Shown: one piece after another, positions 58,927 through 64,000 of the stretch
Numbering within the stretch: the first letter of the stretch is position 1
Layout: every line of letters starts with the position of its first letter
Source: a virus
Virus record (IMG/VR): IMGVR_UViG_3300034111_001103
Span: 104,935-168,934 of that record
DNA: 64,000 nucleotides
Reading direction: 5' to 3' (one strand)
The notes under the pieces: model-generated
Told to the model about the DNA's origin: nothing
Seen by the model: the letters and a program-made list of their open reading frames with translations, nothing else
Database searches by the model: none
Made by a program: the position numbers and the translations under genes

Positions 58927-61191
58927 TTATGGTTTTAATTTTAAGAAAACACCCCATGCACTATCACCACTATTTGCTAGTGTTATTGAAACTACCAAAT
59001 ATTTATTTGTTGTAAAATCTGGTGTAATTGTAACAGGAGCTGTAGTAGATGCAACACCTACATCTATTAGTGATGTAGAACTTGTTGGCAATATTCTAGT
59101 ACCTGCACCTGTCCCATCTTTCTTTTTAATATTAATATATCTTTGAGCAGTTGCATTTCTAGTTGTAACGCCTAATGAAGCACTTTGAAAGACTAATATT
59201 GGACTACCTGATAAATTAGCAGTAGAATTTATATACATTTTTAATGTTACAGTTCCTGCACTACCTGTTTTTTCTATTTTAAAACTTGCATCCAAACTTA
59301 AATCATCTTTAATTAAGGAGCTTGATATTAGTTCTGCATAAGTAACAGTTTCAGCTGTTGTGCCTGTTACTATTGTGCCATCTGCACCTTGATTAATAAT
59401 AGGTAATAAATAATCTAATCCTAAATTTGTTCTAGCAGTTGTAGCACTTGCTAAATCACTTAGATTATTGGTAGGGTTTAGAGGAATATATCCTAATGCA
59501 CTTTGTTTTCCATTAAATGTAGTCCAATCTGTTGAACTTAATACACCTCTATTAGTAGCAGATGCAGTAGGTAAATTTAATGTATGAGTAGTTCCAACAG
59601 AACTAACTGCAAAGTCAGTTCCACTTGTACCTGTAACTATTGTTTGTGATGCACCCGTAAGAGAATTAATAGCAGTTATACCTGTTCCTGCCATAATTCC
59701 TGACTGTTGGGTAACTGTCATAATAACTGATGCAGCAGAAGGTGGAGGAGAACCTGCTGCATAGAACTCCATAGTTACATTAGTGTGGTTGTTTGTACTC
59801 CAAACTAATTCATAATATTGTCCTGCTACAACACTTAGTACATAATTCCAACTTGTTATTACATGTCCTTCATTTCCTACACCTGCTGCTCTTCTTTTTG
59901 GAATTTGAACAAATCCTGATGACCCTGTTACATCTGTTCCATTTAGCCTCAACCAAATAGTTACGTTATGTTCTGCATTATCAATATTTTGAAACTGAGA
60001 ACTAAACTGTATGTTATATATACCTGTATTTGCAAATGTTATTCTTGTAGGATCACCACTTCCATTATTAACAATTGATATACCATTTGGAGTAATATCA
60101 GCTATTTCAAATCTCATAGGGTATCCCACATTACTAGCAGCAGCAGTTTGTGTTGCATCTGTCTGCCAAGCTCCATAATATCCTAATGGTGTAGGAGTAG
60201 TTGCATTACTAAGTGTTCCTCCTGTTAAAGTTAATCCTGAGCCAACAGTTATTTCTTCCATTATACCTGTACCAGCAGAACTTCTCCCTACTAACTTATT
60301 AGTGTTTATAGAAGTAGTAATTGTACCTGCACTAGTAATAGGTCCACCTGAAATTAATCCTGTAGTTCCTACAGAGGTAACTGTTCCTGTACCGTAAGTT
60401 GGAGTAAAATACTCTAATGCTGTTTCTCCTGAATTAACTCTAGCTAATTTTAAAGAATTGCCTGTAAGAGAATCTAAAGGAGCTAATTTACTATTTAAAG
60501 ATAATGTTCCTGAAGAAGTAATAGTTCCTCCTGTCAATCCTGTTCCTGTAGCAACTGATGTAACTGTTCCTGTATATTGATCTGCTGAAGATATAGTAAA
60601 ATTAGGATAAGTGCCTGTAATAGTAGTAGTACCCCCCTGAGTAAGAACTACAGTTTGGTCAGGAAGTGTATTTGTTATAACTCCTGTTAAATTATTATAA
60701 GATATTCCTGTACCAGATGATAAATCTGTTAATTTTATATACCCTGAATCATTATTAAAAATAGATATATTTTGTCCTGTTAAAGCTGTGATAGCTCTAG
60801 GAGAAGTAAAGTATAAATTAGAACCTTCTGTTAAATCTGTAGTTGTTTTAGTAGAAAACGCTGTGTTAAATCTAGTAGATGTATAATAAAGATTAGTTCC
60901 TTCAGGAAGATTTGTTGTAGAACAAGTAGATAATTGAGAACAATTAAAAGATCCTCCTCCTCCAGTGCTATTAATAGTAATAGAATTATTAGTAGGAACT
61001 AAAGTAATATTATCCCCTGCTATAAGAGATTTAAATTGAAATATATTATACTTGTTCTTTTTATAAAATACCCCTTCTCCTAATCCTATATTAGCACCAT
61101 TAGTAGATGCACAACAACATTCTACTTTATCTAGTCTATCATAGATTTTTTTAAGTACACTATCAAATTGATATAAATTATATTCTGGCAT
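58927..61191 (-). CDS. tail fibre protein with C1q/BclA-like domain
   Basis: G/T/S-rich; T.NL.EG.NLY.T repeat x2; GTVTSV repeat x2; GYYGAW...RITFANTGIYNIQFS.Q. Confidence 0.78.
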   Translation of the reverse strand: MPEYNLYQFDSVLKKIYDRLDKVECCCASTNGANIGLGEGVFYKKNKYNIFQFKSLIAGDNITLVPTNNSITINSTGGGGSFNCSQLSTCSTTNLPEGTNLYYTSTRFNTAFSTKTTTDLTEGSNLYFTSPRAITALTGQNISIFNNDSGYIKLTDLSSGTGISYNNLTGVITNTLPDQTVVLTQGGTTTITGTYPNFTISSADQYTGTVTSVATGTGLTGGTITSSGTLSLNSKLAPLDSLTGNSLKLARVNSGETALEYFTPTYGTGTVTSVGTTGLISGGPITSAGTITTSINTNKLVGRSSAGTGIMEEITVGSGLTLTGGTLSNATTPTPLGYYGAWQTDATQTAAASNVGYPMRFEIADITPNGISIVNNGSGDPTRITFANTGIYNIQFSSQFQNIDNAEHNVTIWLRLNGTDVTGSSGFVQIPKRRAAGVGNEGHVITSWNYVLSVVAGQYYELVWSTNNHTNVTMEFYAAGSPPPSAASVIMTVTQQSGIMAGTGITAINSLTGASQTIVTGTSGTDFAVSSVGTTHTLNLPTASATNRGVLSSTDWTTFNGKQSALGYIPLNPTNNLSDLASATTARTNLGLDYLLPIINQGADGTIVTGTTAETVTYAELISSSLIKDDLSLDASFKIEKTGSAGTVTLKMYINSTANLSGSPILVFQSASLGVTTRNATAQRYINIKKKDGTGAGTRILPTSSTSLIDVGVASTTAPVTITPDFTTNKYLVVSITLANSGDSAWGVFLKLKP

Positions 61192-61588
61192 TGATAAATA
61201 TTTGTAATATTTGGTTTAATGATTTTTCTGTATAGTAATTAACTTGTCTGTTAGTTAATCTTCTTACTATTATACCTTCTTTTTTTAATCTTCTAGTTCT
61301 TAGATTATCTTTCTTTTTTTGTTCTGGAGTAGTATGGTATTGTGCTCCATCTATTTCTAAAGCTATATTAGTCTTAGGAAAGTAAAAGTCTAGTATATAA
61401 AGTTTCTTTTTGTTACATATTATGGGATGTTGGAATATATATTCTGCTCCTAGAGTATCTAACATACTTTTAATTTTAAGTTCCCATTTAGTTGCATTGT
61501 GGATAAGCTTTTTAGAATAAAAAACCCCAGCTCTTTCAAGAAGTTCTAGGGTTATTTGTTGTTTAGACTTTTTCTTTTTAAGAGCCAT
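61178..61588 (-). CDS. DUF559/Vsr-like PD-(D/E)XK endonuclease
   Basis: FQHPI...YILDFY.....LEIDG..H....D..R...L. Confidence 0.82.
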   Translation of the reverse strand: MALKKKKSKQQITLELLERAGVFYSKKLIHNATKWELKIKSMLDTLGAEYIFQHPIICNKKKLYILDFYFPKTNIALEIDGAQYHTTPEQKKKDNLRTRRLKKEGIIVRRLTNRQVNYYTEKSLNQILQIFINARI

Positions 61589-62079
61589 TATATATTTACA
61601 TAAGTAGTTCCAGGGATAAAATCTTTTTTATTATATTTTGCTAATAATTGTTGCCAAGTATATCCAAAAGTTTTTTCTAAATGTGGAAAATCTTTTATAG
61701 ATTTGAAGTTTCCTCCCCAACCATAACCTGCTTTAAGAAATATTTTTACTACTTCTAACCAATCGGCTATTTTATCTCCATCCCAATCTTTAGCAGTATC
61801 CCAAGATATTTCTTTTCCATCTATTAGGAAAGCAAAGTCTATGGCTAAACCATAATTATGGTATGAACTACCTCCCTTAGCTTTAGTTACTATTTTACCT
61901 GGAGCAGTTCTTCCTTGAGCATATAGAGCATCTTGTTCTGTAATGGTTCTTAATCCTTGTACTATTCTTATAGTTAATTTAGAAGAAATAGCAGAGTTAG
62001 CTTCTATTACTAATTTTTTTACTTCTTCTCTTATTTTTGGGTGTAAAAGTGCTATCCTTTGTTCTGTTATTTTATCCAT
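61588..62079 (-). CDS. endolysin, M15 family L-Ala-D-Glu peptidase
   Basis: GLRT..EQ..LYAQGR, SYHNYGLAID, WGG, DFPHLE. Confidence 0.92.
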   Translation of the reverse strand: MDKITEQRIALLHPKIREEVKKLVIEANSAISSKLTIRIVQGLRTITEQDALYAQGRTAPGKIVTKAKGGSSYHNYGLAIDFAFLIDGKEISWDTAKDWDGDKIADWLEVVKIFLKAGYGWGGNFKSIKDFPHLEKTFGYTWQQLLAKYNKKDFIPGTTYVNI

Positions 62080-62081
62080 AA

Positions 62082-62675
62082 TTATTTAAATATTCCTATT
62101 AATAATCCAGTTCCCAATCCTACTGCTGTACCCAATATAGTATAACCTATAGTTTTACCTGTAGATACTCTTTTTTGTTTCTTAAGAGATTTATTTAAGA
62201 AAAAAATATCTTCTTTCATTTTAAAAGCTTTATACTCTTGAGTGTTTATGATGCTATCAAGAACTTCTATTTTAGAAGTTTGTATCTTTATAATAGTATC
62301 ATTTATTTTACTTAAAGAATCACAATTAGCAAAAGCTTGGTCTAAAGTTTCTATTAAAGTAATAGTATCTATTTTATTATCAGCTAAGTCTTGTTTAACT
62401 TTTACTATTTTAGTTTTATATTCTGTATGTTTTAAGTATACAGTATCTTTTATAATTTGTGTTTTTTGAAGAGATTTATTTATAACTAAAAGTGAATCTT
62501 CATAAAGTTTTATCTTTTGTTCAAATTCTCTTAGCTTTAAATCTTTTTGTGTTAAAGGTTTAGGAGAGTTACAAGCTTTTAAGAGACTTGCAATTATAAT
62601 TATTAAAATTATTATTCCTAAAAACCCTAATATCATTTTACCTTTTTTAGTTTTTAATATATTATTTATTTCCAT
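62082..62675 (-). CDS. putative spanin (N-terminal hydrophobic segment plus Cys, coiled coil, C-terminal TM)
   Basis: ILGFLGIIILIIIIASLLKAC; C-terminal TIGYTILGTAVGLGTGLLIGIFK; adjacent to the endolysin. Confidence 0.6.
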   Translation of the reverse strand: MEINNILKTKKGKMILGFLGIIILIIIIASLLKACNSPKPLTQKDLKLREFEQKIKLYEDSLLVINKSLQKTQIIKDTVYLKHTEYKTKIVKVKQDLADNKIDTITLIETLDQAFANCDSLSKINDTIIKIQTSKIEVLDSIINTQEYKAFKMKEDIFFLNKSLKKQKRVSTGKTIGYTILGTAVGLGTGLLIGIFK

Positions 62676-62678
62676 TTT

Positions 62679-63116
62679 TTATATTTTGTGAGTTCCTAGT
62701 ATAATGTAAGGTTCATTGTTTTTATATAAAGGTGTACCACTACACTCTACATTTAAAATACTACCATCTTTTTTAGTATGTGTTATAGTATTTATAAAAC
62801 ATGACTCACTTTTATTTTTTATCAATTCTTCTAACATCTTAAAACCTTTTTCTAATTCTTTATGGTTTGCTGTTTTATAAAAAAAGTCTATTTTTTCTAT
62901 TACTTCATTTCTATTGTAATCAAGTAATTCAAGAAATTTATTTGATAAATATAAATCTTTTGATTCATAACTAAATAACCAAAAACCTCCAGATACAAAT
63001 TCATCAGAACCAGTATTTTGTATAAATTCACCTATTTCTTTTATTGTAGATAAATCTTTACTAGCAAGAGCAACTCCTAGTTTTAATATTATATTATTAT
63101 GTTCTTTAGTTGGCAT
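62679..63116 (-). CDS. stand-alone PAS domain protein
   Basis: GFWLF....LYLS..F.ELLDY, KKDGS...VECSG, IILGTH follow the PAS_3/PAC pattern. Confidence 0.75.
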   Translation of the reverse strand: MPTKEHNNIILKLGVALASKDLSTIKEIGEFIQNTGSDEFVSGGFWLFSYESKDLYLSNKFLELLDYNRNEVIEKIDFFYKTANHKELEKGFKMLEELIKNKSESCFINTITHTKKDGSILNVECSGTPLYKNNEPYIILGTHKI

Positions 63117-63511
63117 TACGATTCAATATTATTTCTCTTTTTAATCTCAATAGCCATTTCAGTAATAAAAGGATTTGTTCCTTCTGGAAGTGATTTTTCA
63201 AGCCAAGCCAACAAAGTTTTAATGTAGATTGTATTCTCTGCTATATGCTTGTCAAGCCTATATATTTCTAATCTTAGTTTTTCTACTTCTTGTCTCAAAA
63301 GAGCATTTTCTTGTTTAATATCTTCATTTCTTTTTCTTTCTTCTTCTTCTTTTAAAAGTTCATCAGCATCTTCTTTATCTTGTTTTGCTTTTTTATTAGC
63401 AAAAATATAATCCCACCAAGATCTAAGTATGCCACTTTTATCAAAGAAAAAAAGTACTATAGCTCCTAATACTACTGTTATAAATGTTTCATTTGTTACT
63501 ATTTCTTTCAT
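63116..63511 (-). CDS. holin-like membrane protein with C-terminal coiled coil (probable start MKEIV at 63511)
   Basis: FITVVLGAIVLFFF TM segment, then ENALLRQEVEKLRLEI coiled coil; first gene of the lysis cassette. Confidence 0.55.
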   Translation of the reverse strand: MKEIVTNETFITVVLGAIVLFFFDKSGILRSWWDYIFANKKAKQDKEDADELLKEEEERKRNEDIKQENALLRQEVEKLRLEIYRLDKHIAENTIYIKTLLAWLEKSLPEGTNPFITEMAIEIKKRNNIES

Positions 63512-63531
63512 ACAAAAATAATAATTATATT

Positions 63532-64000
63532 TTATTTGATTATCCACCAATCTTTGCTATCAGTTACTAATTCTATGCTTTCGTAATCGGTTGTAAAAAC
63601 AAAAGAACTTGCATTGTCTATTAATTCACCTCCAAATGGAAGTATAGTTATTAATCTTAATACATTATATGCATTAGTACTTTTTATTGTTATCCTACCA
63701 GTCATTCCATTAAAGATCATTTCAGAAGAGTCTGGCAAAATTATATCTACACTATAAGACTTATTGTCTACTAATATCACGCTTGTAATATTTGTACTAT
63801 CAAGTGCAGTATTACTATTTATAGTACTTATTGAAGTAGATACAACTCCATTAACTTGTAGTTTAGATAGAGATGTAGTAGTTTCAAAGTTATCTATTCC
63901 AATAGCAGTTTTACCATTTTTAAGGATTGTAAATGCGTCTGATGGATTGCCACTTCCACCATTACCTACTACTAATAATCTATCTGTTGGCTCAAATGAA
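63532..64000 (-). CDS. C-terminal part of a tail fibre/adhesin (truncated by window end)
   Basis: Frame is open to the window edge: DRLLVVGNG....DAFTILKNGKTAIG...KLQVNG...ILP...IDN...YESIELVTD...WWII. Confidence 0.72.
   Translation of the reverse strand, partial: SFEPTDRLLVVGNGGSGNPSDAFTILKNGKTAIGIDNFETTTSLSKLQVNGVVSTSISTINSNTALDSTNITSVILVDNKSYSVDIILPDSSEMIFNGMTGRITIKSTNAYNVLRLITILPFGGELIDNASSFVFTTDYESIELVTDSKDWWIIK

Follow-up and report, generated by a model that had tools for sequence, protein, structure and literature searches.

The locus examined here raises the question of whether a stand-alone PAS protein, encoded a few genes away from an endolysin, takes part in the lysis of the host cell. 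It lies on the - strand near the end of a 64,000-nt stretch of DNA (the window; positions 104,935 to 168,934 of the IMG/VR virus record IMGVR_UViG_3300034111_001103), which forms the final 64 kb of a 168,934-bp record that has terminal repeats (end repeat of 44 bp), is rated complete and has a guanine-plus-cytosine (GC) content of about 25%. The phage is crAss-like (Crassvirales), as indicated by matches to CrAss_Ring_2 (47.4 bits) and CrAss_Ring_1 (37.3 bits), both against a Pfam cut-off of 27, and the open reading frames (ORFs) of 4717, 3143 and 1941 aa found upstream in its genome were counted toward the giant virion RNA polymerase/cargo block of crAss-like phages. The analyses revealed that the PAS gene is constantly coupled to the gene of a membrane-anchored helical protein, here called the partner, and that this pair is more likely than not related to lysis. 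An initial annotation of the same DNA had gone further and proposed the two proteins as a candidate signal-gated system of holin-like protein and sensory antiholin.

The PAS protein and its membrane partner

The 145-aa product of the PAS gene (62679..63116, - strand) matched PAS_3 (PF08447) at 37.5 bits, against a gathering cut-off of 25.6, and PAS_9 at 32.6 bits, against a cut-off of 27, and TIGR00229 reached 22.5, slightly below its cut-off of 22.9. The AlphaFold2 (AF2) model obtained from the single sequence was poor (predicted local distance difference test, pLDDT, of 51.9), and a model based on a 41-sequence alignment was used instead (pLDDT of 94.5; predicted TM-score, pTM, of 0.88). This model showed three N-cap helices (residues 4-18, 25-34 and 37-40), where the initial annotation had described one short N-terminal helix, followed by a five-stranded PAS core (residues 41-145) that ends at its last strand; the protein has neither a signal peptide nor an output domain. 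A Foldseek search of the PDB returned the PAS domains of LOV proteins (LOV2), VVD and NifL at E values of about 5e-6, and VIA-align gave Z scores of 11.6 to DsLOV (4kuk; root-mean-square deviation of 2.8 over 110 residues) and of 10.3-10.8 to the PAS domains of KCNH channels; phmmer against the PDB sequences found nothing significant. A PAS fold free of a kinase or other output, as first annotated, was thus borne out by Pfam, AF2, Foldseek and VIA-align, the structural search having been set beforehand as the test able to overturn it.

The best fold matches, namely the short LOV/VVD proteins and the PAS-cap domains of KCNH (hERG/ELK) channels (Z scores of 10-11.6), resemble the PAS protein in having no enzymatic output and signal through contacts of the N-cap or the beta-sheet, as is proposed for the PAS protein, but they share only 13-19% identity with it, belong to unrelated biology and, in the case of LOV, carry a flavin-binding Cys motif that is absent here. 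Photosensors of the LOV type are marked by a GXNCRFLQ-type motif, an adduct-forming Cys on the E-alpha helix and flavin-binding Arg residues. A LOV light sensor, which had been suggested by the top fold matches together with the lake habitat, was accordingly rejected, since the flavin/Cys motif is missing and the equivalent stretch holds neither Cys nor Arg; the invariant Cys of the family sits on the H-beta strand and not on the E-alpha helix. Heme PAS sensors of the FixL/DosP type conserve a proximal His on the F-alpha helix, and no such His was conserved in residues 85-100 across the family alignment, another mode of heme binding being still possible.

In this alignment (A4; 41 sequences, 21-70% identity), G44, S58 and C125 are invariant, and F45, W46, Y113 and H143 are near-invariant. 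The window protein itself has His at position 113, where Tyr is present in 90% of the 41 members, including the close relatives P0002-P0005. Conservation within the close relatives was highest in the N-cap helices and in the H-beta strand (0.86-0.91) and lowest in the helical lid and the G-beta strand (0.55-0.64). The conserved N-cap and H-beta strand were counted for a constrained protein-contact surface, and the pattern as a whole would fit a fixed contact surface with a pocket that evolves faster.

Clustering at 90% left only four close PAS relatives (65-70% identity), while an exhaustive HMMER search added about 35 further stand-alone representatives of 144-157 aa, matching over their full length with the N-cap included. 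Beyond these come PAS repeats of cellular multi-PAS kinases, the nearest cellular sequences being PAS_3 repeats of Bacteroidota sensor kinases. The nearest cluster in the Protein Atlas, a 141-aa PAS_3 protein, was viral throughout, and three family members, compared by tblastn with deposited phages, gave nothing but a weak match in Pseudomonas phage Y10.

The partner gene (63116..63511, - strand) starts with the ATG at 63511, an upstream TTG at 63550 not being used by its relatives, and runs into the PAS gene through a TAATG stop/start overlap that was confirmed at 63116-63120. According to hydropathy, its 131-aa product has a short acidic/neutral N-terminus, one transmembrane domain (TMD; about residues 9-29) and a charged helical domain of ~100 aa. 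The C-terminal ~45 residues are nearly invariant and conservation is lowest in the TMD, a pattern which, judged from sequence, would resemble a protein-docking domain more than a holin. Charge counts in 14 partner sequences showed a net charge of <=0 in the N-terminal flank and a net positive charge in the C-terminal flank, as in the releasin gp25 of phage Mu. These flanks predict an N-out/C-in topology, with the helical domain of ~100 aa on the cytoplasmic side, alongside the signal-less PAS protein; such a topology is like that of releasin/LysF1b-type proteins and unlike that of class III holins.

Family searches with the partner gave phrog_1397 (unknown function) in 10 of 12 family members, no Pfam family above the cut-off and, in the Protein Atlas, unnamed clusters only. 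Two more specific assignments were rejected. Membership in DUF2730 (PF10805) had a best E value of 0.003 in three of the 12 members, which is below threshold, and hhalign against five DUF2730 proteins gave a probability of 7.5%. For an inner-membrane spanin (i-spanin) of the Rz type, the charge bias gives the opposite topology and no small lipoprotein ORF was found inside or next to the gene. A complex prediction of partner residues 38-131 with the PAS protein, which was run without controls, scored 0.02 against a mark of 0.32 and carries no weight for or against binding.

The synteny survey covered 14 contexts (the window; L002, L003-L008, L009; L011-L013, L014, and a Joint Genome Institute (JGI) contig; L015, L016; L018, L019; L022, L023). 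In all 14, the PAS gene directly adjoins a gene whose product is a helical protein anchored in the membrane, and the stop codon of one gene overlaps the start codon of the other, down to a PAS identity of 21-27%. The distant PAS relatives (21-39% identity; L015, L016, L018, L019, L022 and L023) have a neighbour with a transmembrane (TM) segment and a helical region, which they overlap by 1-11 nt. Read from the partner side, every one of the 10 readable homologue clusters (39-98% identity) adjoins a PAS-family gene of 145-166 aa. L018 and L019 show the reverse order, with the partner downstream of the PAS gene, and the pairing is thus independent of gene order. In addition, P0023 (224 aa) is a natural fusion that joins a TM segment, a helix, the N-cap and the PAS domain in one chain, its N-terminus giving no significant hhalign match to the partner family. 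The constant pairing and the P0023 fusion together indicate that the two genes behave as one functional unit.

Lysis genes and cassette layout

In five contexts, an endolysin gene lies no more than three genes away from the pair; these enzymes belong to four unrelated families, being of the M15_4 type in the window and in L016, GH19 in L003/L004, Amidase_2 in the JGI contig and M15_3 in L018. Counted by clade, this adjacency was present in four of the seven PAS clades, the value expected for a random late gene being ~5-10% by our own estimate. Small holin-like genes with 2-4 TM segments adjoin the pair in L002, L003, L009, L016, L018 and L023, and extra proteins with a TM segment and a helix, which are possible spanin equivalents, are encoded in L016 and L018. 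The linkage of the PAS homologues to lysis genes, named beforehand as a point on which the lysis reading could fail, was therefore kept across deep divergence. In L002, a JGI contig of 48.7 kb, the same block of TM-helix, PAS and 202-aa genes lies beside NinB-, YqaJ- and methyltransferase-type genes, a gene content which indicates that the module is common to phages with otherwise different gene sets.

In the window, ORF reading confirmed the order and the coordinates of the genes on the - strand as they were first annotated. The PAS stop codon is followed after 3 nt by the gene of a 197-aa envelope protein (62082..62675, - strand), whose stop codon in turn lies 2 nt from the gene of a 163-aa M15 (VanY-type) peptidase endolysin (61588..62079, - strand), so that the gaps of 2-3 nt were also as described. 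No terminator-like site was found in 60800-64000, and this, together with the tight gene packing, was counted for the explanation preferred below; a promoter scan of the block gave nothing above chance. The endolysin call itself was upheld by PF13539 (M15_4) at 57.9 bits and PF02557 (VanY) at 34.3 bits, both against a cut-off of 25, and by phrog_2649 at 5e-33. No hydrophobic segment was found in this enzyme, and so neither an N-terminal TM nor a signal-arrest-release (SAR) segment, which means that a membrane lesion is needed for it to reach the wall.

The 197-aa protein had initially been described as spanin-like, and its ends are u-spanin-like. It has a TM segment at each end. The N-terminus is basic and leads into a long hydrophobic stretch that closes with L-[KR]-[AS]-C, in which the Cys is conserved; there follow a middle part of helical character and a Gly-rich C-terminal TMD whose hydrophobic segment (residues 178-196) matches the C-terminal TMD of a unimolecular spanin (u-spanin) of the T1 gp11 type. 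Family evidence did not follow, as no match was found in Pfam, PHROG or NCBIfam, and the lipobox is atypical, with a hydrophobic segment that is long (~19 residues) and a charged residue at position -2; the protein is thus a spanin-like candidate. Copies that are 89-93% identical occupy the same position in L002 and L003. In the Atlas model, this middle part is similar to the alpha-hairpin found in periplasmic adaptor proteins of the RND/ABC type (TM-score of 0.5-0.58), which is a lead only; if real, this likeness would put both TM ends in one membrane, unlike in a T1-type u-spanin.

Upstream of the pair lies the C-terminal part of a YadA-head-like tail-fibre gene (63532..63999, - strand), which continues beyond the window end; fibres homologous to it precede the module in L002, L003-L008 and L009. 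On the other side, the endolysin gene is followed by the gene of a 136-aa DUF559/Vsr-like endonuclease (61178..61588, - strand; PF04480 at 40.8 bits), which is probably a flanking gene outside the lysis unit. It overlaps the start of the gene of a 754-aa tail fibre (58927-61191, - strand) by 14 nt, has the same position in L003 and may be a homing-type element of the fibre region. Between near-identical flanks, the window holds the M15 gene (61588-62079) and L003 a non-homologous GH19 endolysin gene (L003:2107-2706), and two further small multi-TM genes (100 and 79 aa) are present in L003. Between its PAS and 195-aa genes, L004 carries a 91-aa gene without known function (L004:6679-6954), at a place where L003 has a 275-nt gap (L003:1202-1477), these relatives being otherwise identical.

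A second tail-fibre block in the same genome (G000:C1:41029-43762) encodes a 274-aa YadA-like fibre, an 89-aa TM protein, a 122-aa protein, a 58-aa protein with two TM segments and a 365-aa fibre. The 274-aa fibre has a conserved segment in common with the fibre at window 63532-63999, and the 58-aa protein is 56% identical to a 60-aa protein of L002. In L009, the TM-helix and PAS pair is found in the slot of the 89-aa gene, an arrangement that suggests cassette shuffling between fibre modules.

Near-identical DNA was detected in lake-water and freshwater metagenomes, with 18 DNA runs, one study each, holding at least half of the sampled words; six of these 18 runs possibly represent the source sample. 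Scans of metagenome_contigs returned the identical copy only, those of genome_contigs gave no match, and viral_contigs, scanned with the three proteins one by one, yielded no relatives. Metatranscriptome contigs matched only 63129-63485 (partner gene, ~99% identity) and 61279-61443, which hints at expression only weakly at best, since the libraries could hold DNA; the parts without coverage carry no information. A strain variant from another lake metagenome (21.9-kb contig) showed 20 differences over window 61100-63600 and none in the PAS gene, numbers that are too few to interpret.

Competing explanations

The explanation preferred here is that the pair forms a split, membrane-tethered PAS sensor which modulates the membrane step of lysis, and it is put forward tentatively, at a level of confidence that falls a little short of even. 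Several observations weigh against it. No recognisable lysis gene is found near the pair in L011, L014 and L015 (three of the 11 contexts with enough flank), several contexts are phylogenetically related, and the lysis genes lie in a hypervariable, recombination-prone tail-fibre region that gathers accessory genes, which makes adjacency weaker evidence. The sole homologue in the own genome of the small 2-TM holin-like protein is located ~125 kb away, in the other tail-fibre block. In Pfam, PHROGs and NCBIfam, the partner has no match among the holin families, and it matched no antiholin or releasin family either. Finally, as neither the LOV Cys nor the F-alpha His is present, the PAS protein has no cofactor motif and may sense nothing.

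The initial annotation took the 131-aa TM protein as the hole-forming holin itself. The PAS protein, docked on the coiled coil of this holin, would be a sensory antiholin and hold triggering back for as long as no redox or metabolic signal is received. The partner does fit the generic description of a holin (small, at least one TMD, a charged C-terminus and a position near an endolysin), although these criteria are non-specific. Moreover, the cassette of the window encodes no other small multi-TM protein, and an M15 enzyme without an export signal needs a hole-former. The L022 partner alone showed sub-threshold matches to Holin_BhlA (E value of 0.009) and to a 'hol-like' PHROG (4e-4), and LysF1b provides a case of an N-out/C-in protein with one TMD that is able to drive lysis. 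These points are countered by the coexistence of the pair with more typical holin candidates of 2-4 TM segments in L003, L016, L018 and L023, by a TMD that varies most and a cytoplasmic C-terminus that varies least, the opposite of what holins show, and by the lack of any holin family above threshold and of any sign of inhibition; antiholins as a class are not marked by any sequence feature. The co-occurring holin candidates and the conserved C-terminus make this version, a possible special case of the regulator model, an unlikely one, while the more general part of the signal-gated reading, a sensor pair linked to lysis, is supported by fold and synteny.

Improbable, too, is a role of the pair outside lysis, as a moron-like accessory sensor in the membrane that serves, for instance, to exclude superinfection or to interfere with signalling in the host, and that merely rides in the fibre/lysis region. 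The three contexts that lack nearby lysis genes speak for such a role, as do the common recombination-prone conserved segments of the flanking tail-fibre genes, the other small genes that fill the equivalent slot in the second fibre block of the own genome, the homing-type endonucleases close by and the PAS_3 repeats of Bacteroidota sensor kinases as nearest cellular relatives. The linkage, however, persists when the endolysin is exchanged among four unrelated families and when the gene order is inverted, it occurs also where a flanking fibre gene is missing (L016), and the pair is tightly coupled in translation to the following envelope and lysis genes; in addition, PADLOC, which models defence systems, gave no meaningful matches.

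Less likely still is a constitutive structural lysis part in which the PAS domain would be a ligand-free protein-protein adaptor without signal gating, as in many PAS-B/KCNH PAS domains, for although no cofactor or ligand motif was found, conservation is strongest on the N-cap and strands and not on the helical lid, and the KCNH channel PAS (Z scores of 10.3-10.8) regulates a membrane pore by docking alone, the invariant Cys125, the near-invariant His143 and W46/Y113 in 41 sequences (21-70% identity) suggest a specific chemical site, and the fast diversification of the lid is as expected with changing ligands.

Proposed mechanism and known lysis regulators

As a split, membrane-tethered sensor, the PAS protein would bind to the partner at the conserved domain in the cytoplasm, the N-cap or the beta-sheet face of the PAS protein being the most likely site of contact. 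A cytoplasmic cue sensed by the PAS domain would then alter the action of the partner on the membrane step of lysis, which may be the triggering of a separate small holin, or a direct permeabilisation or release as with releasin or LysF1b-type proteins. In this manner, the pair would set the time at which the soluble M15 endolysin gets to the wall, and the 197-aa protein would then handle the outer layers. We infer that the PAS protein and the partner are in physical contact, that a ligand exists, of what kind it is, and in which direction timing is shifted.

Lysis inhibition in T4 involves the holin T and the antiholins RI (periplasmic) and RIII (cytoplasmic), and its signal is superinfection sensed in the periplasm. 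The proposed pair would be similar in that a small soluble protein, cytoplasmic in the case of RIII, acts on the soluble domain of a lysis protein with one TMD and makes timing depend on a signal. The two systems differ in that they show no relation in sequence or fold, that T is N-in/C-out, that T4 uses no PAS domain and that binding is proven in T4 and proposed here. In VqmA_Phage of vibriophage VP882, a PAS sensor encoded by a phage makes a decision related to lysis depend on a small molecule. Unlike the PAS protein, VqmA_Phage has a helix-turn-helix (HTH) output, controls the choice between lysis and lysogeny by transcription, is encoded outside the lysis cassette and has no membrane partner.

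With respect to the membrane partner, the closest comparisons are the Mu releasin gp25 and LysF1b, two N-out/C-in proteins with an experimentally established relevance for lysis (PMC9239132; PMC13056207). Like the partner, gp25 (DUF2730; PMC9239132) has an N-terminal TMD, an N-out/C-in topology, a helical cytoplasmic domain of 70-100 aa and an endolysin gene a few genes off, and some DUF2730 types accompany soluble endolysins (PMC9239132). It differs in that it acts on a SAR endolysin and has no PAS partner, whereas the M15 enzyme described here is without SAR and membership of the partner in DUF2730 was not supported. LysF1b of the F1-cluster mycobacteriophages is a holin-like N-out/C-in protein with one TMD, which works together with a small protein of two TMDs and sets the timing of lysis (PMC13056207). 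A small protein with two TMDs also accompanies the pair in L002, L009 and L018, the likeness being one of architecture; LysF1b differs in belonging to phages of hosts with a mycolata envelope and in having no PAS partner.

A full-text literature search found no paper in which a PAS domain is placed among the lysis genes of a phage. What is new in the present case is the strict coupling of separate tether and sensor genes, with a long and conserved cytoplasmic helical domain. It is conceivable, albeit doubtful, that many aquatic phages of Bacteroidota-like hosts time their lysis by a PAS protein and a helical partner which gate the holin step, with a host metabolite or redox state as the cue, possibly perceived via C125/H143. 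The timing of lysis is a central trait of phage fitness, and the known regulators (antiholins, T4 RI/RIII and the Mu releasin) come from few coliphages. If the proposed role is true, the pair would represent a new class of lysis regulators, a cytoplasmic and metabolic counterpart of T4 lysis inhibition, through which phages read the physiological state of the host at the last step of infection. Being small, recurrent and easily cloned, it would also offer biotechnology a compact and possibly small-molecule-controlled lysis switch, and it would extend lysis biology to the little-studied crAss-like and Bacteroidota phages.

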